The notes beneath the pieces were generated by a model that saw only the letters and a list, made by a program, of their open reading frames with translations, had not been told where the DNA came from and searched no databases. 64,000 bases of DNA from a virus (taxonomy: Duplodnaviria > Caudoviricetes): positions 32,001 through 96,000 of the IMG/VR virus record IMGVR_UViG_2830161386_000001. One strand, written 5' to 3'. Shown in pieces: positions 7,925-61,731 of the stretch. The position numbers and the translations under genes were made by a program. The first letter of the stretch is position 1; the number at the start of each line of letters is the position of its first letter.

Positions 7925-7940
7925 AGTCCCAGCTGGGACT
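7925..7940. promoter_or_regulatory. 16-bp palindrome AGTCCCAGCTGGGACT, copy 1 (perfect)
   Basis: Intergenic, 53 nt upstream of the sigma-factor start. Confidence 0.85.
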
Positions 7941-7956
7941 AGCGCGCCAGCAGACT

Positions 7957-10902
7957 TTATCCGGTCTCGTCGGCAAAGGTGGCGTCGATTGCATTGTTTT
8001 CGTCTTGGATTTCGCTTCGGTAGTTGCGGGCCCAGTCCGCACGCTCTTTCATAAACGCCTGGTCCCGGCTTGCCATTTCAAACACGCGGTAGGGCGCCGA
8101 CCAGTCGGTCCCGCTGTTTGCCTGCTCCGCCCCCAGCACGCCTTTGAAAAACTCCTCTTCGGTTGCAACCGGCCGACTGGTATTCCGGCGCACCCAGCTG
8201 CGCGGCTCGTTTGCGTTTTTGTAGGCCCGGTGCAGGACCTGAAGAGCATCGGCAACGCTCATGGAATCTCCCTCAGAAGCGTCTTCAGAAGTGTCTTCAG
8301 AACTGTCGCCGGAAAGCTCGTTGGCCCAGTCGATGACCGACCCGACCTCCAAGAGGTCCTGGTACATCTCGTCCCCGATGGACTGGTCGCTAAATCGGTC
8401 CTCGAAAAAGATCGGGTTCCGGGGGTACCCGGCCTCGTTCATCTTGTGGCCGTCGGCGGAGTTGGCCATTTCGATGTGCTCGCGCACCGGGTTTTCCCGG
8501 TCGGTGTGGAAGGTGCAGTGGCTCATCGAAATCTCGGTGCTTGCCGACTCTTCCCGCACGCTCACCCGGTCGGTGATCTTTTCGATTGTGCCGGTTGTCC
8601 ACCCGAGCGCCGGGTGGTGGACCGCCGCCGGAAAGCCTGCCGCAAGGCTTGTGTTCAGCGGCAGGCTGACGCTAAAGACCCGGCTGCTTTTTCGCAGCAT
8701 CGAGAGCTTGTAATTAGCCCAGATCGAATCGGCGGTCAGAGATTCGGTGTCCTCCTCGTAGTTGTTGAGGGCGTCTTTCCGGGCCTCCATCGCCTCCTGC
8801 ACGACCTCGTTTGTCAGGGGCGTGAGGCTCGAAATAATGTCCTCGTTTGTCTGGATCGCGTCGCTTATATCCTGCTTAATTTCAGGAACGGCCCCGTCTG
8901 TCCCTAGCTTCGGAAAGGGAAACTTTCCGATGCTCGGCTGCACGCCTCGAAGCAGCTCCTCCATCGTGTAGAGGCTCAGCATGTGACTCGGGAGCGCGCT
9001 GTTTCCGTTTTGAATGGCGGACATCATGTCATTGAGCGCGGCGGCGGCCGTCTCCTCATGGGCGGCTCGCTTCTTTTCGATCGACTCGGAGAGCTCCTGA
9101 AACGAACCCGGCACGTCTTCCGCCTCTGCTTCCTGGACCCGCTCTCGGAACGACTCTTTCTCCGACTCGCTCATCACGTCGGGAATTTCGCCGCCGTCTT
9201 TGAGCTGGCTAATGAGATACGCGATCTTTCGGGGGGCGTAGGCCCGTTTGCTTGCAATTTCCTTTGCGGCGGGGGACCTGCCGGTCAGCTGGCTCAAGAT
9301 GCCGAGTTCCCGCCGCATCATAAGGCGGGTCGGCGTTCCGGTAAAGCGCTCCTGCGCGCTTATGCTCTCGATTTGGTTGTCAAACAGAACGTTGCAGCGG
9401 GGCGGCGGGGCTTCCCGTATAGTTGGTTTGATGAGGTGGGTTGGGAGGGTCTCCGGCGCCGTTTTCATTGCGCCCGGGGGCCGCCCGTCAACGGTAGGCG
9501 CAGGGGCGGAGTACCCCTCTTCAATTTGCCGCTTTTCGAAGGTGTCGTAGTAGTCTCGCAGGTCCTCGTGGGTGAGGTCCGGCGACCGGAGCGCGTCGAG
9601 CGGGGAGGTGCCCGAGCGGTCCGGAATCGAGGCCCACCGCTGGGCGGCGCGGTGGTTTGCCTCTTTGATGTTTCCGTTCAGGATCGGCTCGATGGCGCCC
9701 TCCTTTTTCAAAAGTGCAATCGCGGCGTAGTCTTGTTCTTGCTTTGAAAAACCGCTTAGGTACTGGCCGTACTCCTCGCTCCGAACCTGGTCCCAAGTGG
9801 TCGCTGTTATTTGATACCGGCCCGCTGCGGAGGTTTTCTTCCCGTCTCCGCGGTCGGCGTAAACCCGGGGGTGGCGCATGAGACCAGTCATGTTTTGGAA
9901 CTCTCGCCCGCCATAGAGCGTCTGGTACTGCTGTTCTTTCGAGTACCCGAGCCCGTTGAACTCCGCCTGCGCGATGGTGTCGAGGTAGGCCCGGACCCGC
10001 GGGTCTTTTCGGAGCTGAGGAAGGGACATGTCCGGGGTGGTGTCTGGAATCTCTCCGCTGCCTACAGTGAGCTTTTCTTTTTTCTTGTTTGGCTTAGACT
10101 GAGTCTCGCTTCGCTTTGGCTTCCGAAACGGAGCGCTCGGCAGGGTAACCATCTCGTGGAAGCTTTCCCGCAGCACAAGGCGCACCACGTCCATAAGCGT
10201 GGCGCTCGCGGGCAGCTCCCGGAAGCGGCGCCGAAAGAAGTCCAGTGTGTTGTCTTTCTGGAGCCACTTTGTGATCCGCTTGTTTTCGACGTACCCGATC
10301 CGGGAGTCGGTGCCGAGGGCGTTGTAGTTGCGGCGAAAAATTGGGCTGAGGCTCCCCATCGACCCCAAGATGGAGACAATCGCTTGCACCGGCCCCTCTT
10401 TTTCGATGAATTGGTCCAGAGCAAACTTGTAGGAGAAAAACCGGGAGCCGCCTTTGCTGCTTTTGTCGGCCATCTGGGCCCCGCGGGCCCCTTCGACCCC
10501 ATCAAATATTTCCTCGTCCTCCGCCGAGGAGAGCCCGTAGAAAAAGTGGGCCTCCTTTTCGGAGACAAACCCCCGGTTCTGGTCTACGTCAAACCCCATG
10601 CTCGTTTCGTTCCAGTCCCCGTCGATGCCCTCACACCGAATCCGCGTGGCGAGCCGCCCCTTCGAGGAGCGGAGGGCCCGGTTTTTGACCCGCCCCTCCG
10701 CAAAAAGCGCCCAGGGCTCCTCCCCCTCCTTGACAAACGCGTGGACGACAGTGTCCGGCAGGACGCGAAACGCAGACGGGGTCGGCGGCAGCCGGACGGT
10801 AAACTCCAGCGGCGCCCCCACTTGCTGCGTGCGGGTAATGCCGTATGCGGGGATTCGGACCCCCTCGGCGTAGACGCGAAGGTCGTAGGACCGGTCTTCC
10901 AT
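7957..10902 (-). CDS. Baseplate hub-like protein with inserted lambda-R-type muramidase (lytic transglycosylase) domain
   Basis: Central domain VRAYLDTIAQAE...LYGG...TSAAGRYQI...WD...FSKQEQDYAA..LL...RWASIP matches lambda R/GH104. The flanking beta-rich N-terminus and C-terminal GFPA...G.IEKITD segment fit a hub fold. Confidence 0.75.
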   Translation of the reverse strand: MEDRSYDLRVYAEGVRIPAYGITRTQQVGAPLEFTVRLPPTPSAFRVLPDTVVHAFVKEGEEPWALFAEGRVKNRALRSSKGRLATRIRCEGIDGDWNETSMGFDVDQNRGFVSEKEAHFFYGLSSAEDEEIFDGVEGARGAQMADKSSKGGSRFFSYKFALDQFIEKEGPVQAIVSILGSMGSLSPIFRRNYNALGTDSRIGYVENKRITKWLQKDNTLDFFRRRFRELPASATLMDVVRLVLRESFHEMVTLPSAPFRKPKRSETQSKPNKKKEKLTVGSGEIPDTTPDMSLPQLRKDPRVRAYLDTIAQAEFNGLGYSKEQQYQTLYGGREFQNMTGLMRHPRVYADRGDGKKTSAAGRYQITATTWDQVRSEEYGQYLSGFSKQEQDYAAIALLKKEGAIEPILNGNIKEANHRAAQRWASIPDRSGTSPLDALRSPDLTHEDLRDYYDTFEKRQIEEGYSAPAPTVDGRPPGAMKTAPETLPTHLIKPTIREAPPPRCNVLFDNQIESISAQERFTGTPTRLMMRRELGILSQLTGRSPAAKEIASKRAYAPRKIAYLISQLKDGGEIPDVMSESEKESFRERVQEAEAEDVPGSFQELSESIEKKRAAHEETAAAALNDMMSAIQNGNSALPSHMLSLYTMEELLRGVQPSIGKFPFPKLGTDGAVPEIKQDISDAIQTNEDIISSLTPLTNEVVQEAMEARKDALNNYEEDTESLTADSIWANYKLSMLRKSSRVFSVSLPLNTSLAAGFPAAVHHPALGWTTGTIEKITDRVSVREESASTEISMSHCTFHTDRENPVREHIEMANSADGHKMNEAGYPRNPIFFEDRFSDQSIGDEMYQDLLEVGSVIDWANELSGDSSEDTSEDASEGDSMSVADALQVLHRAYKNANEPRSWVRRNTSRPVATEEEFFKGVLGAEQANSGTDWSAPYRVFEMASRDQAFMKERADWARNYRSEIQDENNAIDATFADETG

Positions 10903-10937
10903 AAAGCTATTTTGTTGGGCGTATTAGCATATAACTT

Positions 10938-11705: not shown

Positions 11706-11725
11706 ATTCAGCTATATTTATCGAG

Positions 11726-13092: not shown

Positions 13093-16000
13093 TTATTGGT
13101 ACGGCGTGTCGACCCGAGGGGTGACCTGGACGGACGTGTGGTCGGTGTCGGACACGCCCCCGACGGTGACCGTCACGCGGAGCCGAAGCGTTTTAACGCG
13201 GACCGAGGGGCTCTCGTAGTCGAACACGTCGTTTTCGCGGTAGAGCGGGCCTTCGTATTCGGTGCGCCCGATTTCATCGTCGGGTCGGAGCCGCTCCAGC
13301 TCCGTCGTGTCCCCGAAGAGATTCGACCAGTCGACGGTCACCGACACCTGCGTCGTCGAAGTGCCGGGGACCACCGTTTTGTTGGTAATCGGAAGCGTGG
13401 TGCCGCCGACCCACCCAATGTTTTTGCTGTCGATGCTTCCCTTGTTGACCTCGTAGTTTATCGTAAGCGACTCGTCCCGGTGGACGATCACCTGCGAGGG
13501 GCCGGTAATCTCGACGTTCTTCTGTGCCGCTTCCCCAATGGAGGTCACCCGTATTACCGGGTAGACGCTTCCTCCGATTTCAACCTCTCGGCTCATCACG
13601 ATACCGGTAGCTGTCAGGTCCGTCCCAGCTGGGACTGACACCGACCCGCTTTGGTCGACCAGGTATTCGGTTCCACCGTGGCTTACGACAACGCGCTCGT
13701 TGTCGGTTTCGCCGGTCACGTAGCGGTCGACGGTAAGGGCCCCGTCGCCGTTTCCGGAAAAGTCCCGCGCCTTCTTGTAGCGAGCAACATAAACGACGCT
13801 CCCGGACCCGCTGTCTTTGACCTGGGTACGCCCCTGGATGTGCGTTCCCCCCGGTCCGGCGGCGGGCTCGCGGCGCTCCCCGCTGATCGCCTGGGTGTTC
13901 GGCGGAAGCGACGACCGGTTTTTCTCAAACGTGTTTGCCCGCCGGCGCCACTCGTCAAAAATGTAGTTGTCTCCGCTTTCGCCAGTGGCCTCGATGGGGG
14001 CCTGCACGTCAAGGTCCGCCCCTTCGACCAGACCCCGAGAGAACGGCGGCTTGCGGCGCGCTGAGTCCGGCGGGGTGTTGTACCCAAGCTCCGGGGGCGC
14101 GCCCGCAAGGTCTGCCTCGTTTCCGTCGGCGGCGGCATCTACGATAAACCGGCTCTCGATGCGGTCGACTCGGGACTGGCTTTGCGGGTCGGACTGGACG
14201 GTGAAGGTGTGGCGCCCGAACTCGATGGTTTCGGACTTCATCCAGGCCTTCGCCCCGCTTTCGTTGAGGTCGCAGACGTAGGGCTGGTTCTCCGCGCCGT
14301 TGTAGTAGTAGTCTCCCACCGAGGCGCCTCCGACCGGCGGGGCGCTTTCGAAGCGGCCCCGGTTTTTGAGAACAAGCCCTTTTCCGTCGTGCAGGTCCCC
14401 GCCGGCAAGGCTTGAGGGGTAAAACACGTATTCAATCGCGAAGCTCGTTTCGATCCACAGGTTTGTCGCCCGGCTCGGGACGAGCACCTCAACGCCGTTG
14501 TTCGTGTGCTGAAGCGCGTAGTAGTAGGGGTCCCCGACCTGATTGCCAAACCGGGAGGCACCCTTGTAGGCAATCTGCGGCACAAGCCGCTCTTCCGGCA
14601 GCCGGCGGATCCGGATGTCCAAGACGTCGGACGGCACCATCTTTTTGGCCCGAAGCTGAAGCGCCCGGACCTCCTCGGTTTCTTCGACCGGGTGCTGCGG
14701 CGCGCTTGGGTCGCTGGCCATCTCGAAATTCGCGTCCAGCCCGTACCCGTCCAGCGCCTCGTCGGAGGCCGCGGCCCAGGGCTCCTCGAAAATCCCGGAC
14801 TTTGCGTCGGAAGACTCTTTTTTCGGCCAGCGCTTCGGAAACGGCCCATAGGGGGTTGGCTCCTGGGCCTCCCCGACCCGGGAGTCGTAGCGCCAGTAAG
14901 AGGCAGTGTTGCCGTAGGTCGTGCTTTCGGTAATCGAAGAGACGCGCTCTTCTTTAAACGAAAGCACGTTGGGGCCGACCACCGAGGGCTGGCTCTGTTC
15001 GTACCGGACGGCGAAGAAGTCCGACCCCCGCGCCCCGGCGTTAAACTCCAGCGTCACGACCGGCGCCTCCTCCTTCGACAGCTGCTCGATATTGGGGAGG
15101 TTTTTGATCGCGACTTGCGGGTCGCCCTGCCCAACAAGCACCTTAAAGTTCGCCTCTTCGGTAATCTCTTCTCGGGTGGAGTTTTCGTCGCTCTCGCCCG
15201 GCGGGGTGTAGCGCATAAACACCTTCTGCACGCTCCCCAGATTCCGGCCGGAAAAGCGGGTCACGCCCGGCTGCCTCGGCACGTCGAATGGACCGCTCAC
15301 CTTCGGCGGCGTGCCGTAGAGAGACGCCTGGTCGATAATCTTTCGGATCTCGTTCAGGCGGTTTTCCAGGTACTCGTTGAACGTTTCCGGATCGATGGTC
15401 TCCATCATCTCCTGGTACCCGGAGTAGATGTCGTTGATCGCCCGGTGGAGGTCAAACCCAAGCTGCGCGTTGAACTTGTCCCGCAGCTCCTTAGTGCGAA
15501 GGGTCGTTTTCTCTCCGTTTTGCCCGTCTTCCCCGACCGGCTGTACGGTTACCCGGTAGTCGGTCCCGCCCTTGATGCCGTTTAGATTGACGTTCATGGT
15601 GTCCCCCTGAAACGAGCCGCGGCTTACGTCGACCTGGATCCAGTACCCTTCGTTGTCGCTGTACGGGAAGGTCTGAATCGGGTCTCCATTTTCGTCGGTA
15701 AGGCTGCTTGCCTGGTCGGCCCGCATCTTTGGCTCGTAGCGCCAGTACCCGTTGTTTTCCGCGTTGCTGTCGCTCGCGACGTGGACGACGTCGTTTTCTT
15801 TCAGTGGGCGATCGCTGTCGGTCGTAACGTCGAGGCGGCCCATGTTGTGAGACAGGTTCGTCAGGTCCTGCTTCTCCGAGACGCTGCCCCGGTAGCGGTC
15901 GCTCATAAGATCAATCCAGGTCAGCTCCCGCATCAGCTCGGTCGTCGATCGGTACACCACCGTTTCCCGCTCGGTTTGCCAGCCCTCTCCGGTAAGCATT

Positions 16001-17592: not shown

Positions 17593-17625
17593 CGGTAGGT
17601 TAGGTTAAGTGTGGCGCGCCTGCCA

Positions 17626-20827: not shown

Positions 20828-20967
20828 GCGCCGATGCGGTTTAGCAGGCCGCCCGTCCGGGCAGCCGGGAACAACACGTTAACAAACTAACGGGCCGGGC
20901 GCGGGCCGTTGACGCCCAGCGGTCTTTCGGCCTTCTTTTTGGCCGCAGGATTTGCGGCCCTGTCGAC

Positions 20968-21007
20968 AAAAAAAAGACCCCACCCCCTTTAGAGAGGGGC
21001 GGGGCCT
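20968..21007 (-). terminator. Rho-independent terminator
   Basis: Minus strand GGCCCCGCCCCTC-TCTA-AAGGGGGTGGGGTC followed by T8, just after the stop of 21040..21840. Confidence 0.8.
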
Positions 21008-21014: not shown

Positions 21015-21030
21015 AGTCCCAGCTGGGACT
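21015..21030. promoter_or_regulatory. 16-bp palindrome copy 3 (perfect)
   Basis: Between the stop at 21040 and the terminator. Confidence 0.85.
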
Positions 21031-21840: not shown

Positions 21841-21929
21841 GGCTCTTTATTTATGTAGAGTGAAAGCAACAGACACACACCGCCCGTTGCATAACTATGG
21901 TGCCGACTTGCCTGCTATATTTGCACGGT

Positions 21930-30122: not shown

Positions 30123-30138
30123 AGTCCCAGCTGGGACT
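30123..30138. promoter_or_regulatory. 16-bp palindrome copy 4 (perfect)
   Basis: Intergenic, 42 nt upstream of the start at 30080. Confidence 0.85.
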
Positions 30139-31826: not shown

Positions 31827-31842
31827 AGTCCCAGCTGGGACT
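31827..31842. promoter_or_regulatory. 16-bp palindrome copy 5 (perfect)
   Basis: Intergenic, 23 nt upstream of the start at 31803. Confidence 0.85.
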
Positions 31843-42189: not shown

Positions 42190-42205
42190 AGTCCCAGCTG
42201 GGACT
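42190..42205. promoter_or_regulatory. 16-bp palindrome copy 6 (perfect)
   Basis: 21 nt upstream of ATG 42168, just downstream (in transcription direction) of a terminator-like hairpin. Confidence 0.85.
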
Positions 42206-45872: not shown

Positions 45873-45888
45873 AATCCCAGCTGGGACT
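45873..45888. promoter_or_regulatory. 16-bp palindrome copy 7 (AATCCCAGCTGGGACT, 1 mismatch)
   Basis: Intergenic, 36 nt upstream of the start at 45836. Confidence 0.8.
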
Positions 45889-49100: not shown

Positions 49101-52100
49101 CGGTGTAGGTCTTCGTGGGAGTGGAGTCGGTGTCGTCGAAAAGCGCAAACGAGTAGGGATTTCCGTCAACCGAGAGCGTTTTTTCGCTTTTGCTACCCTC
49201 CCGGCGGCCCCGGAAGGTCAAGCTCTCAGGCTCGATGCGGTCCCCGTCGGGGTTGATCCGAAACACCTGGTCGTCCGGGTCCTCGATCAAGTACTCGGCA
49301 AAGTCCCGGTTGAACCGCACCGTCTCGGAGAACCGAATTGTTTTGTCGGCCGTCTCCGCGTTGTGCTCAAACGAGATTGTCCACCGGCTGGGGCTCGTTG
49401 CCGTGGTGTCGGGGGGGACGTCGTTTCCGTTTTCGTCGGTGACGGTCACGCCCCCGTTCAGGTTGTTTTGGGGCCCAATCGTCCAGTACGCGTCGATTTC
49501 TGAGCCGTTAGGCGAGGCGTGCACGTCGACGACCGTCCGCACCGTCGATCCGGTCGGCGGGGCGTAGGTGCCTTTGATGGCAATCGGGGACGGCGCGACG
49601 GTATCGTCTGTTTCGTTGGGGGTCCCGTCGGTGAAGTACGTAATCTCCGTTCCTTTTGGGGTAACGATGTATCCGGTGCTTACCCCGTCGTTTAGGTCCA
49701 CAAGGCGCTCGGAGTCTAAGACCTGCCCGTCCCAGGTCTGGAGTTGAATCACGTCTTGTTCGGCGATGTCATCCGGCGTAATCTCAACAGTTGAGACCGG
49801 GGATGCCGAGCTGCTTCCTGGCACCGCCTGTTGCGGATTGGTCTGGTCTCCGCCCTCGTACCGGACGAGCTTGAGCTCTCCGTACTGCAAGTCAATCGGC
49901 TCCCCGCTCCGTTTAAACCCAAACGACAGGGCCTGATTTGAGCCGTCCTTGATGCTTGTCCCCTTCTGCGGGTCGATGCGGTAGATGCCAAAGTCGCGGG
50001 GGAGCTGAAGCTGCTCGGCGAAGGTAATTGTGTCCCCGGCGTGCGGGTCCTCTCCTTCAAACTCGACCAGAAGATCCTCGACCGGCCCGGTCACGCCGGT
50101 TTGCGCCGGGCTGTCCGCGTTCAGCGGCGAGGAGACCTCTGTGCCTTGAGCTTTCACGGCGTAGCTTACGTCCGCGTCTCCCGCGCCTGCGCTCCAGCTG
50201 ATCTCCAGCTCGTTTCCACTTGTTTCCGTGCCGCCGATCAAGACCTCTTGGGCGTGCCCCCCGCCCTGCACGTCCACAAACCGGCCGGTAAACGTGACGC
50301 CACTTGGGCTTACGACATCAACCCCTGGGCCGTTGAAGTGCGTCATCTCCAGGGAGGAGGGCTGGACGTAGCCGGTCGATACCGCGTCGTTTAGGTCCGC
50401 CAGGGCGATGCTGTCAACGATCCCGGACTCATTGGCCGAATCCCCGAGATAGACGCGCCGACGCCCGCCTCCGATATCCCCTGGCTGAAGGGTTGGCTCG
50501 TAGTCGCCCGCCGCGCTTGTCAGGTCGCTGATCGGGGGATAGCTGCTCCCGTCTTTGACGCGGAGCTTGTAGTTTCCGCTTGTAATCGGGGTTTCGGTGT
50601 CCCCGACCACCTTGACCGCGCTTAGGGTTATGGAGCCGTCTCCGTTTTTAATAACGCGCCCGTCCTGCGAGCGGATAAACCGCTGGACCGTGCTGTCCCC
50701 CGGCCGGACGGCAAACACCCGCTCGCGGGCCGTTTCCGTGACGCTCGCGTTCGGGTCGTCGTAGGTAAACTCGGCGGTTGCGGCCTGCCCATCGCCTCGC
50801 AGCGTCACGGACACGTCCCCGGGACTCGTCTCGGAAAACGAGCCGCCGGAGGAAGCGCCCGTAACGCTTCCGTCCAGGGAAAAGCTCGTTCCGTCCCACG
50901 TGACCTTCGCCAGCTTTGCCGCCACGCGACTTCCTCGAAAAAACTGCGCCCCGATAAACACCGACTCGGTTTGCCAGTCCGTATCCGCGTCTCGGGTAAA
51001 GACCGCGCTTCCCTCGACCACCTCGGTTGTGCCGCGGATCAGGTCCGTTAAATCCGCGAGCCGCATCGTGTCGTAGGTGACACCCCTGCTTTTGTCCGCA
51101 AGATGAAGGGTCAGCTGCCCGTCGGTAATTTGAGGCGCGCTAATCGAGGGGCTGTACGGGTCGCTTGCCCCGATGGAGTTGGCCGAATCGGTAATCGGGT
51201 AGAGCGTCCCGCCGGACTTGGTGTAGAGCTTAATTTCAGGCTCGTGGCTGGAGGAAATGGCTTTTTGCTCGCTTGCCCGGACGTGGGTGGCGCGGACCTG
51301 AACGGTCTCTCCTGAATTGCGGATCACCCGACCCCCATCGGTCCGGATGTAGAAGTACTCCGACGCCTCTCCCTTTTCGCCTTTGACCCGGGCAACGTCC
51401 CAGTCCGACCAGTCGCCGCTACCGTCGCTTCCGGCCTCGTCGTCGTAGCGGCTTACCGCCACGAAATACGGGTCCCGGCTTGTTACATCGTTTGGGCTTT
51501 TCTTCCAGCCGTTGCTCCCAGGATCCCAGCTGGGACTGGCGCCCGGGCGGCCGGTCGGCTGGTTTTCCGGGGCGGGCGGCTTTCCGATTCCAGGGGCGGT
51601 CGGGTCGTCTGCGGTCGGCTCGCTCCCGGTGCCAGGGTGCCATACCCGAAACACCCCCGCCTTCGAGTCGAGCTTCTCCGGGGCCGACCAGGCGGCGTCT
51701 TCCGCCCCGTCTCCAGTGGTGTCAATTGTTTTGGCCGGCCCGCCTGCCGCGACCGTATACACCGCCTTGCTCATCCAAAGCTGCTTTTCGGAACCGGAAC
51801 CGGTTGGGGGCGCGTCGCTCCAGCCGCTCGGCGGATTGGGGTCGAAGTACGTCCCGCCCGCCGAGTTTGAGGGGCGCCCCGGGCTGCCGCTGCTGCGCTG
51901 AAAGACGTAGCTCGTAAACGCGCCCGGCTCCCCGGTCCGGATGGCCGTCACGTCTCCGTATGCCCGCTGTACGATCCCGGACTCGTTTTCGTACTCGACG
52001 GCGACGTCGGCAGCGTAGTCCGAAAGAACCGTCCCGTTTCCGTCTGCAATGAGGCTTACCGACGCCCCGGGCTCTTTCGTCGAGGCGCTAGAAACAGAGA

Positions 52101-55100
52101 GCGACCAGCTCGGGGAGGCGCTCGGGCCGTTGTAGGTGACCTTGGCGGTAAGCTCCGCCACCGGGTCCGGCCTCGGGCCCTGGAAAAACGCGTACTCGAT
52201 GGTTGTCGTCGTCCCAAGGGCGGGCGTCCAGGACCGGTCTTCGTTTTGGTCGTAGGTCCGCGGCCCGCTTGTGTAGTCGACTGTCGGCACGACCGACTCA
52301 GTTAGGTCCGCCAGGGTTACCCCCTGGACCTGCCGGCCCGGCGCCCCGCCATCCCAGGTCTGAAGCAAAACGTCGGTAGAGTTGTCGATGGCCCCGGCCG
52401 AAAATTCGTAGTAAAGGTCCCCGCTTCCCCCTTTCTGAGACACCCCGCTGGTGTTTTCGTCCAGCACTGTGCCCGTTCCGTCCGTAAGCCGGAATCCATC
52501 GCTTTTGGAGAGACGGTTTTCCCGCGGGCCCTTTGTCTTTCGGGCCTCCACCGGAAGAGTGCCCTGAGAGTTTTTGATCAGGTTCCCGTTTTCGAGAAGC
52601 AGGTTGTAGCTGGTCCCGTGCTCCCCGTCTCTCCGGACCGTAATGGTTTCAGATTCGGTATCGCGGGCGTCGTCGCCGGTGTCGACCCACACCCCATCGG
52701 CCGCCTCCCCGTCGGGGTTCCAAACTGCCTCACCAGACACGTCAAGACTGGACCCGTCTCGGGTCGTATCCAGCTTCCAAAACGTGCCGCTTTCCTCCAC
52801 GTACCGGAGGTCGTCGTCGCGGGTCTCTTTCTTTTTGATGCTGGTCAGGTCGGAGGGGGCCTGCACGCCGCTTTCCGGCTCGTGTTTGTAGGTAAACTCC
52901 AGCCCCAGCGCCTGGCCGCTCTCGCTGAGAGACTTTTCGTAGGTAATCTCCGAGCTGGAAATGCTGGCGTCGTCTTTAATAAAGAGCGACGCATTCGGCG
53001 CATCGAACCCAATCGTAACCGAGCCGCGGGCCTGGACGGCAAGCCCCCGCCGGGCCGTCGCGGTAATTACAGTATCTGTTGTCCGGTCCCACGTCTCGCT
53101 CTCCTGGTCCCAGCTATACACCAGGTCCTGTGGGTTCCGCTCAAGCGCAACGTCGATGGCGTCGGCCCCGTCGGTCCCGTCTTTTAGGTCGACGATCTTA
53201 ACCGCCTCCAGCACCGCGTCTCCGTCCCGCAACACGAGGTCATCGTCCCCGTCGATGTCGGTCTCGTTCAGCACAATCCGCCCAGAGGGCGCCTCCCCGC
53301 TTCCGTCTTTGAGGCGGCCCTCCGACCCGTCCAGGACAACAGATTGAGTGTCAACCGGCCTTAGCTCAACGGTAAACTCCGCGTCTTCGCGCCCGGCTAC
53401 GCCGGTGATGCTGTCGATCTCTTTTTTGGTGAGACGGCGGTTGACCGCGCCCCGCTCGCGGACGTCGATCTTGACCGTTCCGCTTCCGTTTCGGATGACC
53501 TTCGGGGTCACTTGCTTGAAGTAGAAGCTCCCCGGGTCGTCGACAAATTCAAGCTGCTCCTCCTCGGTGGAGGACTCCCCGGTTTCCGGGTCCACCATTG
53601 TAAACCGGACGCGCATCCGCTTTGGGTCCGTCGTGGCCGCCGTGCCGGACTTGTCCGTTCCGGCGCTGGTGTCGTAAACGACCGTGCCCGCCTCGTTTAT
53701 GACCTTGAAGTCTATGCTCCCCGCCTCGTTTTCGACCGGCGCCCCGCTTGCGGCCATCTCCGCGATCACAAGGTCCCCCGAATCGTTTTCCTCAAACCGG
53801 AAATACGCGTCTTGGCGGCGGGTCGACCGGCTATCGCCCGGCGGCTGAAACACGCCGGTAAACCGCAGGTCCTCCGGGTCAATCGGGAGCCCTCCCGTTA
53901 CCTCGTCGACGGTGTAGTGGGTCACCTCCCGGCCGCTCGGGGCCTGAATGTAGGTGACCTGAAACGGGTCGGTCGTGTCCAAAATCCGCTCTGCGTCCAG
54001 CACGGCCGGGTCCCCGGAGGCCGGGTCGGTCTGGAGCTGCACGACGTCCTGCTGCTTGATGTCGCTGGCGGTCAGCTCCACCTTTGAAATTAGGTTCCCC
54101 GACCCGTCTTTGGGCCACACCTCAATAGGGTCGGTCGGGGCGTCGATGCCCTCGTACTGCACGAAGCGAAGCTCTCCCTCCTCCAAGTCGACCTGCCGGT
54201 TCGGGTCGTTTCCATCGAAGCGCTTGAACTTAAAGACAAGCGTTTTGTCGGTGCCCTTCTTCAAGTCCGTTCCGTTGGGCGCGTCGATCCGGTAGGTCCC
54301 GTCGTCGCGAAGAAGCTGAAGCTGCTCTAAAAAAGAGACGGTCTCGCCGGTATTCGGGTCCGTGCCGGTAAACTCGACGACCAGCTCGCGGACGGTGCCC
54401 GAAACCCCGCTTACAGACGGGTTGTCCGCGTTCACCGACCCGCTAGTTCCGTTGGACGGGTCAAATACAACCGTTCCCTGCGCCCGCACGACGTAGGTGG
54501 TGTCCTCGTCGGCGGGAATCGAATTGCTGGGCGTGCCGTGCTGGAAATCGACGATCAGGTCTCCGTCGGCGTTGTCCGACGGTTTCATCTCCAGCCCCTG
54601 GGCGTGCTCTGTTTTTTGGCTGTCGAAGAACCGTCCGGTAAACGGCACGCTGGAGGCGGACACAGAGCCGTGAGCCGGGCCGGTAAAGTGGGTTACGTCC
54701 AGGGTGGGGGCCTGCACGTACCCGGTCGAGAGCCCGTCTGTAACGTCGGCAACGGCGATGCTGTCCTCCTGTACCGCCTCGCCGGTTCCCGGCCCCAAAT
54801 ACAAAATCCGCTGCCCCTCGATCTGCGCGTCGTTTAAGGACGGGCTATACGGGTCTGCCCCCGGAAGCGGGGAGCCCGGCGCCCCGAGGGGCACAAACCC
54901 GTCTCCGCTATCGGTCTCGTCGGTTCGGATCTTGTACCCGTCCCCGCTCCCGAGGCGGACCTCTTCGTTTGCCTGCTGGCGGATAATTTTGAGGTCGACC
55001 GTTCCGACGCCGTCTTTGATAGCCTTTCCGTTTTCGGCTCGGATAAACCGGTCGGTGGTCGACTTCCCGCCCGTTAGGGCGACGACTTCGTCTTGAATAT

Positions 55101-57594
55101 TAACGTCCGGGGCACCGGAATCTCGGTACTTCCATACGATTTGAACGCTGTCGTTGGTCGTGTTCGGGGCTTTTGTGATCTTCCCGGGATTGGTCTCCGA
55201 AGGGTGGGTAATGTCCGTTGTCGTAAAGGTGCTTCCGTCGTAAAAGACCTCAATCGCGTCGGAGGCCAGCTCCGTGTCCCCGATAAACACCCGCCCGATA
55301 AGCTGAACGGTCCGGTCGGATTCCGGCTGCTCGGCCCAAGACTCGTTGGCCGGCTTCGTAAAAACGGTTTGCCCAGACAAGACCTCGACCGTTGAGGAGT
55401 ACTGGTCGCTCGCGTCGACGAGGGTAATCGTGTCGAGGGTATTCCCCGCGTCGGTGTCCCGCAGAAAGACGTCAAAATCACCCGCGTCGGTAATGAAGCT
55501 CGCCCCGATTTGCGTGGGGTTGTAGTCGTCGAGCCCGATATTGGAAAGGAGCTGAAAGTTTCCGTTGTCGTCCTGGTAGTGCAGCTTGTGCGGCCCGGAG
55601 GTGAGAACCTCCTTGGCCCCGCCTTCCGCCCGGACAACTTCAAGGCCAAGCTCCTTCGCTGCGTTGTCGGAGGGAATGACCGTTCCTTTCGTCGGGCGGA
55701 TGTACCGCCGAATCGAGGGCTTTCCGGCCGATACCGCGACAATGGACTTCGTCCGGCTGACCGTCACCGACACCTCGCCGGTGTCGGACCACACGCCGTC
55801 GTAGGTGCCGTCTCCGTTTGGGTCCCAACCGACTTGACCGGTCTCTGGGGACGTGCTCGTCTCGTCAAGGCGCCAGTACGTGCCGGTTTCTACTACAAAA
55901 TACCGGGCCCCGCCTGCCGCCTCCGCGGCGCTGATTCCTTTGAGGGACGCGGTGGTGTCAACAGAGGTTACCGGCACGTAGGTGTACTCGAACGTCACGT
56001 CGATAATCTGGCCCTCTTCCCCAAACTCCTCTCCCTCTTCAGTCGTGATCTCGACGTAGCCTTTGTTTTTGTAGTCGCCGGGCCCGGACGGCTCCTTCGT
56101 GACGCTGAAGGTGTAGTTCCCGTTTGCGTTTTCGTCCCAGGTTACGTCGACGTAGCTCCGGGCCTTCAGCGCGGTGCCCTGAAAAAACGCGCCCTTCAGC
56201 CGCGTCGTGCCGGTTTGCCAGTTCCCCTCCGGGTCGCGGTAGTAAGAGTAAAAGCCATCGATCAGCGAGACGACCCCGACAAGCGATTCGGTGAGGTCTG
56301 TAAGCGTGATGCTGTCTAGCACGTCGCTTTTCGACAGGTCCCCCTCAAGCGAGTCGATTGCGTATACGTCAATCTCCTCGTTAATGTCGGAGGCGGCGAC
56401 CTGAGGCGCGTAGTTGTCCTTGCCGATGGCCGTCTTCAGCGTGACGTAATTGCCGTTTTGGTCGGTCGTGTAGAGGCGAACCGGCCCGCTTTGAACGGGA
56501 AACTCCCCGCGCCCGGACACCCGGATGAGCTCTAGCCCGAGGGTCCCAGACGAGTTTTTCAGAACCGTTCCATCGGTCGGCCGCACGCGGTACTGCACGT
56601 TGTCTTCCCCGTCCTGGCCGTCTTCGATGGCCCGGATCACCTGCCGGGCCTCCTCGACCGCGCCCCGGCCGGTCTCGTACTTCGCGATGACCTCCACCGA
56701 GCGGCCCGCCTCGTCGAACTCAAACTCGATTTTCGAGGAGCTGCCGGCGGAGACGACCGAAAACTCCGCCCCGTCCCAGCTTACCGATACGGTATCGCTG
56801 GCAAGCGGCTTCCCTCCTTCCCGAAACTCGGCGCGAAGGGTCGTAATGCCAGTATTCCAGGCTCCTCCTTTCGGCTTTCGGTACTCCACCCGGCCGCTTA
56901 CGACCGTGAGCTTCCCGGAAATCGCTTCGGTTAGGTCCGTGAGCGTAACAGAGGCCTTTGCCTGGTCCTCCGGTCCAAAAAGCCGGAGCACGGTTTGGGT
57001 GCCGATGTCCGCCGCGTCGAGGTAAAACGAAAGTGCCTCTTCGCTGGCCGGGGCGCCTAAATTCGACTCCAGGGCGCCGACCGTCTCCCCGTCTCCGGTC
57101 TTGAGGGAAAAGCCCTCGCCCAGCTGAATTGGCTCTCCGTTCCGCTCCGCCCGCACGAGAAGGCGGCCCTCGGAGTTTTTCAGCCGGGTGCCCTCCGGCG
57201 TAGCAATTTCGTAGAGAAGCGCGTCTTGGCCGGCCTGCCCGCGGATAACGGACCGCTCGAACGGGAGCCAGCCCCCGCCCTCGTAGACGGACTGGGCCAT
57301 GTAGACGGTATCGGCCCCGGAGCGGAGCGACCAGTCTCCGTCGCCGGTCCACTCAACGCCGCCGGGCTCCCCCTCAATGTCAGATACGCGAGGGACCTCT
57401 GGGCTCGGGTCTGCGGGGCCGTAGAGAACAAGAACGCCAGATACGCTCGCCCCCTCCGCGCTGGAATCGCTTTGGGTACCGCCGGCTTCAATTTTATCGA
57501 TGCGCTGCCGCAGCCGGTTGATCTTCGAGCGGTCGCCGGTGCCACTGTTTCCGCCCTGGCCGCTGCCAAGAGGAGATGAGGGGCGCTCTGCCAT
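46156..57594 (-). CDS. Giant (~3,810 aa) repetitive fibre/adhesin with CBM5/12-like insert
   Basis: About 12 repeats of Y.I....G..[IL]KN..G...[DS]...L.D[LV].[DE]; PWQSDVQYGEGDVVSYEGSNY.C (CBM5/12-like) near 48520-48650; lower-GC C-terminal region. ATG at 57594 preferred over 57636. Confidence 0.8.
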   Translation of the reverse strand: MAERPSSPLGSGQGGNSGTGDRSKINRLRQRIDKIEAGGTQSDSSAEGASVSGVLVLYGPADPSPEVPRVSDIEGEPGGVEWTGDGDWSLRSGADTVYMAQSVYEGGGWLPFERSVIRGQAGQDALLYEIATPEGTRLKNSEGRLLVRAERNGEPIQLGEGFSLKTGDGETVGALESNLGAPASEEALSFYLDAADIGTQTVLRLFGPEDQAKASVTLTDLTEAISGKLTVVSGRVEYRKPKGGAWNTGITTLRAEFREGGKPLASDTVSVSWDGAEFSVVSAGSSSKIEFEFDEAGRSVEVIAKYETGRGAVEEARQVIRAIEDGQDGEDNVQYRVRPTDGTVLKNSSGTLGLELIRVSGRGEFPVQSGPVRLYTTDQNGNYVTLKTAIGKDNYAPQVAASDINEEIDVYAIDSLEGDLSKSDVLDSITLTDLTESLVGVVSLIDGFYSYYRDPEGNWQTGTTRLKGAFFQGTALKARSYVDVTWDENANGNYTFSVTKEPSGPGDYKNKGYVEITTEEGEEFGEEGQIIDVTFEYTYVPVTSVDTTASLKGISAAEAAGGARYFVVETGTYWRLDETSTSPETGQVGWDPNGDGTYDGVWSDTGEVSVTVSRTKSIVAVSAGKPSIRRYIRPTKGTVIPSDNAAKELGLEVVRAEGGAKEVLTSGPHKLHYQDDNGNFQLLSNIGLDDYNPTQIGASFITDAGDFDVFLRDTDAGNTLDTITLVDASDQYSSTVEVLSGQTVFTKPANESWAEQPESDRTVQLIGRVFIGDTELASDAIEVFYDGSTFTTTDITHPSETNPGKITKAPNTTNDSVQIVWKYRDSGAPDVNIQDEVVALTGGKSTTDRFIRAENGKAIKDGVGTVDLKIIRQQANEEVRLGSGDGYKIRTDETDSGDGFVPLGAPGSPLPGADPYSPSLNDAQIEGQRILYLGPGTGEAVQEDSIAVADVTDGLSTGYVQAPTLDVTHFTGPAHGSVSASSVPFTGRFFDSQKTEHAQGLEMKPSDNADGDLIVDFQHGTPSNSIPADEDTTYVVRAQGTVVFDPSNGTSGSVNADNPSVSGVSGTVRELVVEFTGTDPNTGETVSFLEQLQLLRDDGTYRIDAPNGTDLKKGTDKTLVFKFKRFDGNDPNRQVDLEEGELRFVQYEGIDAPTDPIEVWPKDGSGNLISKVELTASDIKQQDVVQLQTDPASGDPAVLDAERILDTTDPFQVTYIQAPSGREVTHYTVDEVTGGLPIDPEDLRFTGVFQPPGDSRSTRRQDAYFRFEENDSGDLVIAEMAASGAPVENEAGSIDFKVINEAGTVVYDTSAGTDKSGTAATTDPKRMRVRFTMVDPETGESSTEEEQLEFVDDPGSFYFKQVTPKVIRNGSGTVKIDVRERGAVNRRLTKKEIDSITGVAGREDAEFTVELRPVDTQSVVLDGSEGRLKDGSGEAPSGRIVLNETDIDGDDDLVLRDGDAVLEAVKIVDLKDGTDGADAIDVALERNPQDLVYSWDQESETWDRTTDTVITATARRGLAVQARGSVTIGFDAPNASLFIKDDASISSSEITYEKSLSESGQALGLEFTYKHEPESGVQAPSDLTSIKKKETRDDDLRYVEESGTFWKLDTTRDGSSLDVSGEAVWNPDGEAADGVWVDTGDDARDTESETITVRRDGEHGTSYNLLLENGNLIKNSQGTLPVEARKTKGPRENRLSKSDGFRLTDGTGTVLDENTSGVSQKGGSGDLYYEFSAGAIDNSTDVLLQTWDGGAPGRQVQGVTLADLTESVVPTVDYTSGPRTYDQNEDRSWTPALGTTTTIEYAFFQGPRPDPVAELTAKVTYNGPSASPSWSLSVSSASTKEPGASVSLIADGNGTVLSDYAADVAVEYENESGIVQRAYGDVTAIRTGEPGAFTSYVFQRSSGSPGRPSNSAGGTYFDPNPPSGWSDAPPTGSGSEKQLWMSKAVYTVAAGGPAKTIDTTGDGAEDAAWSAPEKLDSKAGVFRVWHPGTGSEPTADDPTAPGIGKPPAPENQPTGRPGASPSWDPGSNGWKKSPNDVTSRDPYFVAVSRYDDEAGSDGSGDWSDWDVARVKGEKGEASEYFYIRTDGGRVIRNSGETVQVRATHVRASEQKAISSSHEPEIKLYTKSGGTLYPITDSANSIGASDPYSPSISAPQITDGQLTLHLADKSRGVTYDTMRLADLTDLIRGTTEVVEGSAVFTRDADTDWQTESVFIGAQFFRGSRVAAKLAKVTWDGTSFSLDGSVTGASSGGSFSETSPGDVSVTLRGDGQAATAEFTYDDPNASVTETARERVFAVRPGDSTVQRFIRSQDGRVIKNGDGSITLSAVKVVGDTETPITSGNYKLRVKDGSSYPPISDLTSAAGDYEPTLQPGDIGGGRRRVYLGDSANESGIVDSIALADLNDAVSTGYVQPSSLEMTHFNGPGVDVVSPSGVTFTGRFVDVQGGGHAQEVLIGGTETSGNELEISWSAGAGDADVSYAVKAQGTEVSSPLNADSPAQTGVTGPVEDLLVEFEGEDPHAGDTITFAEQLQLPRDFGIYRIDPQKGTSIKDGSNQALSFGFKRSGEPIDLQYGELKLVRYEGGDQTNPQQAVPGSSSASPVSTVEITPDDIAEQDVIQLQTWDGQVLDSERLVDLNDGVSTGYIVTPKGTEITYFTDGTPNETDDTVAPSPIAIKGTYAPPTGSTVRTVVDVHASPNGSEIDAYWTIGPQNNLNGGVTVTDENGNDVPPDTTATSPSRWTISFEHNAETADKTIRFSETVRFNRDFAEYLIEDPDDQVFRINPDGDRIEPESLTFRGRREGSKSEKTLSVDGNPYSFALFDDTDSTPTKTYTGGGTSVEVGHEDVSGSALLQLRKGSATVESLRIIDQKEGTDGDDAPLLDIDRVLGPKEWVRDQSGDWAPGPTANGNRETRLKATFYKGASERQSARVDLRLDTGSGTLSDVTSASNVGSNYTVNVTAAGGGSLPARSVDVEFVYEDPSESKPWQSDVQYGEGDVVSYEGSNYICTVVSTTVGDPPDGATTEWDPHDKTYRRTRQVTALREGQDAAEQARISAGQYVFIKNKPTAQEDWSVPEIGLTAKTGGLVGNPSEITYKWETKEGGGSYSAAQTQTGDNGGDTFTVSHPSVGTDPFQKTVRLTVTDGADGESYTDVETFPVVQEGSDGIVLSVANDTHAYPVDQNGDIVGDLDRGAAEFRVYEGAKQLAISSATVVDNGPFSQAKAPVKTESEGDYARLVPQDYTAPFTGGKAKVKVIATRASGEEIQPVGVVNYRIGRDVIGPGLAERGKAARKLGDGFSGLATSADAIGYLTALENVESDGDGETIDEHARRWRTYLSDSGDLYLNESDDETSMQYVANWGTPSTPDSGLFAVGRVGEAKSFFKSLSSGDYPSNGTADEDTDTFFGYHEGVLALNGRLAGKIQQGRTVDLGDPPDEGIRLDGGEEEIRVYANELPDEPSRPSIAIGPNASFPGNMNPVATESLGQTYSRTFSTNDPGGNRQTSYELLRLDGSEGFDVTDFGHSPDVPVEMASEVNLSITIGNTGQAEDLDFTLVFELRENTSITDGTLAKKIVGTGTVTPDYSGYTITESFSFDDAVISRPQFGDVVEFVVTLETDRDIDSAEQISASIGGLKTSTPGLNDVTWRQFRPRTVVNKNGVFSKVSPRVTSTLGANGSVGVVSGGGGGSGGGVSSFEGRTGSIEVQRSDTTDVVDNQVASTFAGTPPKGELLLQHIFHEKFRVEEAILYANSAPDSSYAVNVDVGGNAQTVSLDGGQNYVVDGSIGREVSKGDVIRATTASADSGIGEVTISFDLSPIE
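51522..51537. promoter_or_regulatory. 16-bp palindrome copy 8 (GATCCCAGCTGGGACT, 2 mismatches), intragenic
   Basis: Inside the giant gene, in a Pro/Gly linker (ASPSWDPG). Confidence 0.7.
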
Positions 57595-57612
57595 AGAAGG
57601 CAACTTTTTTTG

Positions 57613-57628
57613 AGTCCCAGTTGGGACG
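57613..57628. promoter_or_regulatory. 16-bp palindrome copy 9 (AGTCCCAGTTGGGACG, 2 mismatches)
   Basis: 18 nt upstream of ATG 57594. Confidence 0.7.
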
Positions 57629-57702
57629 GAGGCCAACTACACATTTACAAGGTAGCGCCCCGGCGGCCTTTCCGTGTTGCCGGAGCGCCGACTCAAAACG
57701 CG

Positions 57703-57737
57703 AAAAGCCCGGCCGCCATCGACAGGCGGGCCGGGCC
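57703..57737 (-). terminator. Rho-independent terminator after the major capsid gene
   Basis: Minus strand GCCCGGCCCGCC-TGTCGAT-GGCGGCCGGGC-TTTT. Confidence 0.75.
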
Positions 57738-57787
57738 CTTCGGGACTAAGAAGAAGTGCGGCTGCGGGCCGAGATGGCCACAAAGCG

Positions 57788-59119: not shown

Positions 59120-59232
59120 AGTTGGTAATGGGGTTGTTGTGGGGGCCGAATGGGCCCCGTTCCGGCCAGCGTTGTTGGAAGCTGGAAAGACCAGGCGGCC
59201 GGATTAGCGCCAGGTGGCGCTTAAAGCGTTAG

Positions 59233-59730: not shown

Positions 59731-59795
59731 AGTAGAATAAAGGTTGTGCGGCGGTTGCCGCGAAGTCTAGCGCCAGTCGGCGCTGTAAGCTCTGG

Positions 59796-60191
59796 TTACG
59801 CGGCGCCGATGTCCGATGCGCGCTTTTGAAGGTTGCGCATGGCATTGGCGGCGTACTTGCTCGAAGTTGATGGCTCGGTGCTGGCGGCCTCCTTCGCGGG
59901 GCCGTCGTCGACGTCTTCGACCAGCGACTGGCCGCCGGCAAAGCCCGGCCCGGCCTCCTTCATCGCGGTCTTCGTCTTTTGCAGGTCCTTGTCCGACTCG
60001 ACGAGCCGATCCCGTTCCTGCAAGAAGTTGCTCGGCTCGGTGGCCCCGTTGGCAATCTTCATGTCCACGATCTCCTCGGCAACCTTCTCGCGCCGAAACG
60101 CCGCCAGCTTCTCTCGCTGCTCCTCAATGGTTTCCTGCTGAGACTCCAGTCGCTCTCGCGCCGCCTTCAGCATCTGTGCGGTCTTGTTCAT
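59796..60191 (-). CDS. Coiled-coil head assembly/scaffold-like protein
   Basis: 131 aa, heptad-rich, six K-x-A motifs; position upstream of the capsid genes. Confidence 0.65.
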   Translation of the reverse strand: MNKTAQMLKAARERLESQQETIEEQREKLAAFRREKVAEEIVDMKIANGATEPSNFLQERDRLVESDKDLQKTKTAMKEAGPGFAGGQSLVEDVDDGPAKEAASTEPSTSSKYAANAMRNLQKRASDIGAA

Positions 60192-60225
60192 AGTAGTGAC
60201 TTACGATCTGTTGGGCCGTGGGGCC

Positions 60226-61161: not shown

Positions 61162-61213
61162 AAAAAGGGTGTTGGTTTGTTACGCCGCGTCTGCGGCGGG
61201 CCGGTCGGCGCGT

Positions 61214-61684
61214 TTACTGGTTGGCGGCCTTCAGCTGCTGGGCCACCAGGTTGCGGGCGCTCTTCTCCATCTCCTCGTCCGGCTCCTGCCCGGTCAGAGA
61301 CGACCAGGCCTCCATCGCGCCTTTGACCATGCGGTCGAACATCTCCTGGTCCTCCTCGTCGCTCTCCGGGGCCATCGAGGCGCTCTTCTGAAGCTCACTT
61401 CGGGCCTCTCGGACCTCGCTCAGCACCTCGTCGGTGGAGGCGCCCTTCTCGATCATCTCCTCCATGGTCGAGAGCATCTTGAGCGCGCCCTGGTCGTGGG
61501 CGAGCTTCTGCTGCTCCCCGCGGTAGGCGAGGTCATCGGCAAGGCTCGCGGTAAGGGCATACCGCTCCTCGGAGATGTCCTCCCCGTTGTCCGCGGACTT
61601 TTCAAGGTCCTTCGACTCGGCGTCGACAAAGGCGCGGGTCGCGACTTCGCGACCGTACATTTCACTGTAGGCAAGCTTCTGCAT
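61214..61684 (-). CDS. K-x-A-rich head-associated protein
   Basis: 156 aa; KLAY, KSAD, KLAH, KGAS, KSAS, KGAM, KSAR, KAAN. Confidence 0.7.
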   Translation of the reverse strand: MQKLAYSEMYGREVATRAFVDAESKDLEKSADNGEDISEERYALTASLADDLAYRGEQQKLAHDQGALKMLSTMEEMIEKGASTDEVLSEVREARSELQKSASMAPESDEEDQEMFDRMVKGAMEAWSSLTGQEPDEEMEKSARNLVAQQLKAANQ

Positions 61685-61715
61685 AGGTAAAAAGGGTTGT
61701 TTGAATTGGGAGGCG

Positions 61716-61731
61716 CGTCCCAGCTGGGACT
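61716..61731. promoter_or_regulatory. 16-bp palindrome copy 10 (CGTCCCAGCTGGGACT, 1 mismatch)
   Basis: Intergenic, 31 nt upstream of the start at 61684. Confidence 0.8.

Follow-up and report, generated by a model that had tools for sequence, protein, structure and literature searches.

An evenly spaced array of a 16-bp palindrome across a 198-kb phage genome with a plasmid-like rep-iteron-parA module

Dispersed dyad repeats are already known in phages, where they are still unexplained. The closest precedent for the element described here comes from the Cluster O mycobacteriophages, which are reported to carry more than 30 copies of a 17-bp dyad-symmetric repeat (34 in Corndog), many of them intergenic and about a third within genes, with an orientation unrelated to transcription and a function that the report leaves unexplained (PMC4351075). 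We analyzed a 16-bp perfect palindrome in a 64,000-nucleotide stretch of a Caudoviricetes virus (IMG/VR record IMGVR_UViG_2830161386_000001, bases 32,001-96,000; hereafter the window) and across the full record. Positions are genome coordinates unless marked as window positions. Like the Cluster O repeat, the palindrome is one short dyad sequence present in more than 30 copies across a phage genome, many of them intergenic. The two sequences are unrelated, and a variable spacer of 3 bp divides the Cluster O repeat but not the palindrome. The former is denser toward one genome end, whereas the latter is evenly spaced. The Cluster O phages are also described as lacking parAB (PMC4351075), whereas the phage analyzed here has parA, rep, and iterons.

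Other described systems share individual features with the palindrome. KorB of the IncP plasmid RK2 is presented as a partition protein that acts on dispersed palindromic OB sites as a global, long-range silencer with a ParA-type partner (PMC11790492), and a reference title cited there puts the number of OB sites at 12. Both replicons thus have a dispersed palindromic site and a ParA-type gene. In contrast, KorB is a ParB-family CTPase clamp, while the phage genome gave no ParB_N match and has 35 sites rather than 12. Cluster A stoperators are described as numerous repressor sites in short intergenic gaps of long operons, where they stop elongation (PMC9283540; PMC4351075). The palindrome similarly occupies many short gaps across long operons genome-wide. 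However, stoperators lack symmetry, run in the direction of transcription, and bind a monomeric repressor, whereas the phage site is symmetric and its flanking asymmetry runs both ways.

F sopC, N15 IR1-4, and chromosomal parS are described as inverted repeats of 16 bp at which a dimeric centromere-binding protein works with a ParA ATPase, and the N15 prophage-plasmid as having four separate natural IR sites (PMC3177203, PMC7205306). The phage shares the ParA ATPase and an inverted repeat of about 16 bp, which in its case is perfect. Those systems have helix-turn-helix (HTH) ParB or SopB proteins, not found in the phage, and their sites are tandem or few as opposed to about 35 evenly spaced copies. 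The N15 IR sites are dispersed among phage genes. Rather than clustering as parS sites do, one copy of the palindrome lies 30 nt before parA and the remaining 34 are evenly distributed across the 198 kb. The sopC arm hexamers (TGGGACCACGGTCCCA, as given in PMC3177203) have the same letters as the palindrome arms in everted order, which we consider a coincidence. Because the genome has no recognizable ParB-family protein and the element is neither asymmetric nor clustered, we file it under dispersed dyad repeats in phage or plasmid genomes and not within any named family. A literature search with the motif core gave no description of it among the matches listed, which were unrelated eukaryotic primer or gene papers.

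What the present genome adds to these precedents, and what constrains the mechanism, is spacing that is too even, copies written into giant genes, and a copy in the parA leader of a rep-iteron-parA module. Should a phage protein prove to bind the sites, the array would reveal how a phage genome this large and one-directional stays silent, or is organized as an episome, within hypersaline bacteria. Episomal carriage has been reported for a Salinibacter virus described as lacking a Par system (PMC12064560). The palindrome is also a convenient handle for pull-down experiments.

Distribution and anatomy of the palindrome

The initial annotation listed ten copies in the window (five exact, three with one mismatch, and two with two), and we recovered exactly these (Table 1). 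The 12-nt core was exact in nine, with a single mismatch in the tenth. Dinucleotide shuffles of the window (n = 100) contained a mean of 0.02 sites and a maximum of 1. Genes were called with our own codon-usage model trained on long open reading frames (ORFs), and these calls are not annotation; they placed all window genes on the minus strand. The contexts first described were also reproduced: seven copies lay upstream of the next start codon, one lay between a stop codon and a strong hairpin with a T-run, and two lay inside ORFs in different frames.

The full record is a 197,771-bp virus with direct terminal repeats of exactly 95 bp. Within it, 34 copies had at most two mismatches (16 exact, 13 with one, and 5 with two), compared with none for a reversed control pattern, and a 35th copy had three mismatches. 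The array had been proposed to belong to the virion operon. Instead it was genome-wide, with sites in the replication, nucleotide-metabolism, and right-end regions as well. By placement, 27 of the 35 copies were intergenic, 7 were inside ORFs, and 1 overlapped a called gene end. Intergenic DNA makes up 9.7% of the genome (P~5e-21 for the observed bias), and 8-mers of the palindrome topped the list of intergenic-enriched words. The suggestion that the copies mark gene leaders held in part. The seven window copies do precede starts by 18-53 nt, but copies in general are equally near upstream stops (3-107 nt), and 10 of the 27 intergenic copies lie in, or directly before, strong terminator hairpins.

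Spacing was more regular than chance. The mean interval between copies was 5.55 kb with a coefficient of variation of 0.57, versus 0.97 under uniform placement (P = 0.0002). A null in which 35 gaps were drawn from the 165 intergenic gaps gave a coefficient of 1.14, and none of 20,000 draws reached the observed evenness. The largest gap between copies was 13.5 kb versus an expected 22.5-27.5 kb (P = 0.01 and 0.00045). Regularity was greatest between 31 and 137 kb, where the coefficient fell to 0.37.

Four of the five genes longer than 3.9 kb had internal copies, and the 11.4-kb gene in the window had one near its middle. Altogether, 5 of the 7 intragenic copies fell in genes of this size, whose share of the coding DNA is 18.8% (P = 0.0035). 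The intragenic copies were spread over all three frames (SVPAGT, SPSWD, and S-Q-L-G five times), and one copy sat in the plus-strand rep gene, opposite to the main direction of transcription. The placement of copies looks selected for distance along the DNA and not for particular gene leaders.

Positions 3-14 were nearly invariant, as were the central four bases among them (34 of 35 copies), with variation concentrated at positions 1/16 and 2/15. At the half-site level, variants at position 2/15 were always the same transition (13 of 70 half-sites). Outside the 16-mer the dyad continued weakly, with a pyrimidine at -2 and a purine at +2. The bases immediately adjacent, at -1 and +1, behaved differently. 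Read on one strand in mRNA sense they were C..C at 15 sites and G..G at 9. Because these bases are identical on the same strand, the full unit is an oriented 18-mer, found in either orientation with respect to transcription. This rule fits either a stem stopped at 6 bp, as in a hairpin form, or descent from an asymmetric founder. The two flank orientations did not segregate along the genome, and so gave no replication-direction bias, and no asymmetric flank was conserved beyond ±3 around the 35 copies.

By eye, another CAGCTG-like word adjoined about 12 copies on one side, its center 11 bp from the dyad center. CAGCTG is not avoided in the genome (96 versus 105 expected). Two other ideas about the flanks were dropped. 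Although 22 of the 35 copies complete exactly one GANTC with a flank base, GANTC occurs 637 times genome-wide versus 619 expected. By our own reading, a target-site-duplication model, with a 5-bp direct repeat around a 12-nt core, fully fits 3-4 sites alone.

One copy, at 182424, sits in a plasmid-like module (181129-184522). In order, the module consists of rep on the opposite strand, six iterons, a promoter, 19 nt, the palindrome, 30 nt, and parA. Rep, on the plus strand, matched RPA/Rep3_N (RPA 34.6 bits, over the cut-off). The iterons span 182507-182702, four of them at an exact 22-bp period. The promoter before parA is sigma70-like (TTGAAA-17-TATGTT), with the 19 nt measured from its -10 hexamer, and is the only intergenic one among 25 sense-strand sigma70-like matches in the genome. 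Here the single palindrome is accompanied by an abutting CAGCTG partial repeat. ParA is a 263-aa deviant-Walker-A ATPase (PHROG ParA-like, 1.3e-61; Pfam AAA_31, 2e-41, also CbiA/MipZ). Elsewhere, at 121157-121318, the genome encodes a PhdYeFM antitoxin domain. Together, the module and this domain suggest a phage-plasmid lifestyle.

Candidate functions of the palindrome

We tentatively favor, at somewhat below an even chance, a reading in which the palindrome is a duplex-DNA site, one of a genome-wide set, for a phage-encoded dimeric protein, serving as operator, roadblock, or centromere. The initial annotation had offered a site for a dimeric protein and an RNA hairpin as competing models. The evidence leans to the former in its genome-wide form, because the sites are genome-wide and over-regularly spaced, copies in ORFs occupy three frames, the dyad is perfect, and one copy lies at the parA promoter. 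The central four bases, as invariant as the arms, also favor DNA, since an RNA stem-loop needs no self-complementary loop. Likewise, flank asymmetry in both orientations indicates an element that is not tied to the sense strand. The reading also draws on two copies that end close to a promoter-like motif, on an intergenic copy kept within a rewritten flank in a related strain, on the limited number of contexts in which the RNA hairpin is the preferred fold, and on the rarity of the motif in the candidate host order (all below). A narrower version, in which the protein is a late activator, was not supported because sites extend well beyond the late genes into the other regions named above.

Under this DNA-site reading, a dimeric (or dimer-of-dimers) phage protein would recognize the palindrome as double-stranded DNA. 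The ~35 copies lie every 5-6 kb over 198 kb, in intergenic gaps where available and otherwise inside very long genes. We infer that the protein, with every site occupied, would impose a network of operators or roadblocks on the whole genome, would nucleate a partition or silencing complex along the array, or would do both. This action would belong to a stage at which the rep-iteron-parA module maintains the phage as a plasmid-like episome, and the copy downstream of the parA promoter may autoregulate the parA operon.

Several observations weigh against this proposal. A symmetric dimer leaves the same-strand-identical flank bases without explanation: the ±1 bases were complementary at 8 of 35 sites versus 15.7 expected by permutation (Fisher test on the C/G table, P = 0.0014). 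Stem variants compatible with G:U pairing in the mRNA sense were more frequent than the opposite kind (14 versus 5, two-sided P = 0.064), a count in which copies from one duplicated cassette are not independent. Seven copies form part of longer terminator hairpins, as an RNA-level element would look, and three more lie 7-17 nt before separate strong terminators, at 52973 (window copy 21015), 107738, and 188373. Positions of copies relative to promoters were heterogeneous. The plasmid lifestyle is itself deduced from gene content. Finally, our searches turned up no identified binder. Six-frame hidden Markov model searches of the whole genome gave no matches for ParB_N (PF02195, E<=1) or CB_ParB_C (PF18064), and ParB_N was absent from the Pfam family lists, which cover 201 of the 204 gene calls (three of the lists are complete, at 16, 14, and 13 families).

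The tentative candidate for the binder is a 138-aa protein encoded directly after parA. A variable, low-complexity disordered linker joins its conserved N-terminal peptide to a conserved C-terminal domain whose 75 residues are nearly invariant among four strain-level homologues. In a type Ib partition system, a small ParA is paired with a ribbon-helix-helix centromere protein encoded right after parA, and repeats at the parA promoter double as operator and centromere; the candidate and the copy at the parA promoter were compared with this arrangement. By eye, the C-terminal part follows a strand-helix-helix pattern. Two AlphaFold2 (AF2) models (pLDDT 50 and 53) contained three helices only, with none for the putative strand. 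Its neighbors in the Atlas include CB_ParB_C, Arc, RHH_9, and HicB clusters, which point to ribbon-helix-helix or ParB-C families but are unaligned and serve as leads only. As further points against the DNA-site reading, neither Pfam nor PHROGs matched the protein at thresholds as loose as E<=10, a PDB sequence profile search returned nothing, and no fold match was significant (VIA-align best Z 4.5; Foldseek against PDB best E 1.8). Two HTH_3 domains are encoded elsewhere, at 152.3 and 155.9 kb.

The boldest form of the proposal is a long shot. In it, a jumbo phage-plasmid would use one small non-ParB protein, possibly of the ribbon-helix-helix type, with ~35 identical palindromes spaced evenly over the genome to both segregate and silence its 198 kb, a logic like that of KorB carried by another protein scaffold. 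Giant ORFs would have had sites deliberately placed in them to keep every stretch to ~13 kb at most, and the fusion of some sites to terminator stems would let occupancy set transcriptional read-through as well.

An RNA element is unlikely on balance, but it is the leading alternative. Intrinsic terminators, lambda boxB, and RAT-type hairpins are all short GC-rich stem-loops between genes. By analogy, a 6-bp stem with a 4-nt loop in long minus-strand transcripts could be recognized by a phage or host factor and act in mRNA processing, 3'-end protection, or termination control, for instance as a hairpin of the nut/boxB or RAT type in competition with an overlapping terminator stem. The 27 intergenic copies lie on the sense strand, many of them 3-33 nt past a stop codon, and the isolated hairpin is predicted at -8.7 kcal/mol. 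Avoidance of ±1 pairing would fix the stem length. The site at 147711 keeps all six pairs by means of three wobble pairs, in sense only, and an orthologous copy in a related contig (below) alters a loop base while restoring a stem pair. Several features nevertheless argue against RNA. The loop is self-complementary and conserved as strongly as the stem, and none of the 35 copies shows a compensatory Watson-Crick double change. Seven copies sit in translated ORFs, five of them in giant genes, where ribosomes would unwind a hairpin or cleavage would do harm, and one lies in the oppositely transcribed rep gene. The hairpin was the minimum-free-energy structure in 19 of 35 contexts (±30 nt) and not in the other 16, and the flank asymmetry takes both orientations relative to the mRNA. 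Cas6, RNase III, and NusG were not among the Pfam families listed for 201 of the 204 gene calls, and Rfam gave no match at gathering score in the 64-kb window.

In our own hairpin-plus-T-run scan of the whole genome, the seven fused copies took two forms. At the T-run starting at 4738 and at four copies between 147.7 and 150.5 kb, the left arm is paired to a near-repeat downstream, which leaves the right arm as the loop; at 10319 and 17536, the palindrome itself is the apex of a longer stem. All seven are counted for the RNA element as alternative-structure arrangements, in which the left arm pairs with the near-repeat into a longer hairpin with a T-run, and the three copies shortly before separate strong terminators are added to them. 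On the other hand, only these 7 of the 27 intergenic copies lie within a hairpin plus T-run, so that the motif is not in general an intrinsic terminator. Four further terminator calls near copies were weak (-9.4 to -10.6 kcal/mol), and 17 of the 27 had no strong T-run terminator in or beside them, several being followed by A-runs instead. These copies, those in ORFs, and the self-complementary loop set the palindrome apart from terminators, boxB, and RAT hairpins.

More doubtful than either the RNA element or the boldest form of the DNA-site proposal is a selfish or recombination-spread repeat, such as a unit like a repetitive extragenic palindrome (REP) or miniature inverted-repeat transposable element (MITE), or a small regulatory cassette copied in either orientation between intergenic regions, with little or no function of its own. 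The oriented C..C 18-mer, found 15 and 9 times in the two orientations, and a conservation that decays outward are what founder copies would leave. Four neighboring copies (147711, 148460, 148733, and 150528) share a ~36-nt palindrome-plus-terminator cassette. A 1047-bp segment in this region is replaced by 27 nt in two sequencing runs of other strains, with ends 46 and 20 nt from two of the cassettes. Over-regular spacing and in-frame embedding in giant genes, however, suggest that selection has acted on where copies sit. The Pfam lists showed no Y1/HUH or other transposase family, target-site duplications beyond the single flanking base were absent around the copies, and only 3 of ~30 listed joint ends fell within 50 nt of a site versus ~1.6 expected (our own count). 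The motif is also not a repeat of the candidate host order, being rare in 151 genomes of the Rhodothermales (a tentative host), and it occurs as single copies in two unrelated IMG/VR contigs.

Least probable, to the point of being quite improbable, is a signal for the phage's own multisubunit RNA polymerase (RNAP), read as a promoter, pause, or factor-loading site either in DNA or in the transcription bubble. In its favor, an RNAP is encoded (Rpb2_6, 2.9e-60; Rpb1_5, 2e-22) with no recognizable sigma, so that the phage must rely on signals of its own, no other intergenic word comes close to the palindrome in enrichment, and seven window copies precede starts. Against it, a perfect palindrome gives no direction while 200 of 204 genes are on one strand, no asymmetric flank is kept beyond ±3, copies also occur inside ORFs and terminator stems, and the genome has another recurring promoter-like motif.

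Relatives, host, and gene content

The initial annotation had allowed for an assembly artifact or an abundant host repeat. The motif is not an assembly artifact, because both orthologous copies are present in L006, an independent IMG/VR contig with 91.9% identity over 10,077 columns. The copy inside a 1380-aa ORF is unchanged there. In the orthologue of copy 107777, the consensus base is regained at position 2, one central base is changed, and the upstream flank is rewritten. This comparison shows conservation and does not decide between DNA and RNA. The motif occurred in 2 of 151 Rhodothermales genomes, with one one-mismatch match each, and is therefore not an abundant repeat of that order. 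Of two metagenome-assembled genomes (MAGs) with TerL relatives, one had no match with at most two mismatches and the other a single two-mismatch match. Three other IMG/VR stretches contained single exact copies, and two of these (L005, L007) share no protein with the phage.

Close relatives were scarce. A DNA search of GenBank phages returned no match to the phage, and the phages matched in a TerL protein search, from Bacillus and others, shared no more than 22-24% identity. When IMG/VR was scanned with TerL, a TerL alignment, DnaE, and an alignment of the parA neighbor, the matches were only the L006 fragment or DnaE relatives at 29-36%. Relatives at 24-26% were among the matches listed in a metagenome scan. 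TerL homologues with 45-77% identity exist, one of them on a 206-kb contig; the nearest in the genome collection (57%) is on a 4.3-kb contig binned with a Rhodothermales MAG. Sequencing runs holding phage sequence came from hypersaline lakes, brines, and salterns (at least 20 rows, 7 studies), and none of those listed was an RNA run. The environments of these runs, together with the binned TerL contig, make a Salinibacter-like host plausible. Shine-Dalgarno-like words preceded 9 of 161 genes versus 21% of random windows, and leaders were G-poor (15% G). This depletion resembles that of Bacteroidota-type hosts and is consistent with the Rhodothermales hint.

Our gene caller found 204 genes, 200 on the minus strand, covering 90.3% of the genome. 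Pfam and PHROG matches included replication proteins (DnaB, DnaE-type Pol III alpha, and a PriCT primase domain), nucleotide metabolism (ribonucleotide reductase with an intein, thymidylate synthase, and dUTPase), recombination and remodeling (RecA and a 2152-aa SNF2 helicase), and packaging and virion functions (a GpA-type large terminase and a weak tail-sheath match). A 2388-aa minus-strand ORF (171201-178367) encodes a fused RNA polymerase that unites beta (the Rpb2_6 match above) and beta' (Rpb1 domains 2, 4, and 5) and includes an intein. The window gene at 6834-7871 had been labeled a sigma factor. It had no Pfam match, and a six-frame search of the whole genome for sigma70 region 2 (Sigma70_r2) found nothing at E<=1. 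The 3812-aa ORF of the window (46156-57594, minus), labeled a giant fiber, gave only a weak CBM_5_12 match in Pfam (1.3e-05, below the cut-off), and this label is putative.

Table 1. Copies of the palindrome in the window and associated terminator-like hairpins
Feature	Position	Strand	Context
Palindrome, exact	window 7925..7940		intergenic; 16 nt after 981-aa gene stop, 53 nt before 345-aa gene start
Palindrome, 1 outer mismatch	window 13621..13636		inside 1499-aa ORF (13093-17592, minus); reads SVPAGT
Intrinsic-terminator-like hairpin (34 nt, -25.7 kcal/mol) plus T-run	window 20964..21007	-	directly downstream of copy 21015, mRNA sense
Palindrome, exact	window 21015..21030		9 nt after 262-aa gene stop, 7 nt before strong terminator hairpin
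Palindrome, exact	window 30123..30138		intergenic; 42 nt before 246-aa gene start
Palindrome, exact	window 31827..31842		intergenic; 19 nt after stop, 23 nt before 264-aa gene start
Palindrome, exact	window 42190..42205		intergenic; 21 nt before 250-aa gene start; dyad extended 2 bp beyond C/C non-pair
Palindrome, 1 mismatch (position 2/15 transition)	window 45873..45888		intergenic; 17 nt after stop, 36 nt before 253-aa gene start
Palindrome, 2 mismatches	window 51522..51537		near middle of 3812-aa ORF; reads SPSWD
Palindrome, 2 mismatches (one outer, one central)	window 57613..57628		18 nt before 3812-aa gene start
Palindrome, 1 mismatch	window 61716..61731		intergenic; 33 nt after stop, 31 nt before 156-aa gene start
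T-run starts of 7 palindrome-fused terminators	genome 4738, 10319, 17536, 147694, 148443, 148716, 150515		from the hairpin-plus-T-run scan

Neighboring motifs and minor observations

Copies of the palindrome at 143785 and 171162 end 3 nt before a variant of a recurring promoter-like motif. This second recurring intergenic motif consists of a GTGCAAATAT-like element, 13 nt, and GCACCATA. It has 10 canonical copies, including one at window 21896-21926 (minus) and four toward the right end of the genome (188-194 kb). A small hairpin and TCTCACTC usually come after it, and it is probably a promoter class with a conserved leader. Between 142.9 and 146.5 kb there are five or six hairpin cassettes (GGGCTGGGCA, ~9 nt, CTGCCCA, then TTTATTCTT), each 52-53 nt before the start codon of a small gene.

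Other hypersaline strains show replacements and deletions of small-gene cassettes at 147.6-150.9 kb, among the listed 40 of 2,227 differences. Several 6-bp palindromes are avoided genome-wide, including CTCGAG (0 versus 76 expected), CTGCAG (0 versus 41), CGCGCG (6 versus 63), and AAGCTT (12 versus 48), which looks like avoidance of host restriction sites. The intein of the ribonucleotide reductase large subunit (L011:7559-11284) has a LAGLIDADG domain. Three tRNA genes were predicted, Lys-TTT, Ser-ACT, and Glu-CTC (L012:1230-1303, L014:11040-11112, and L014:13372-13459).

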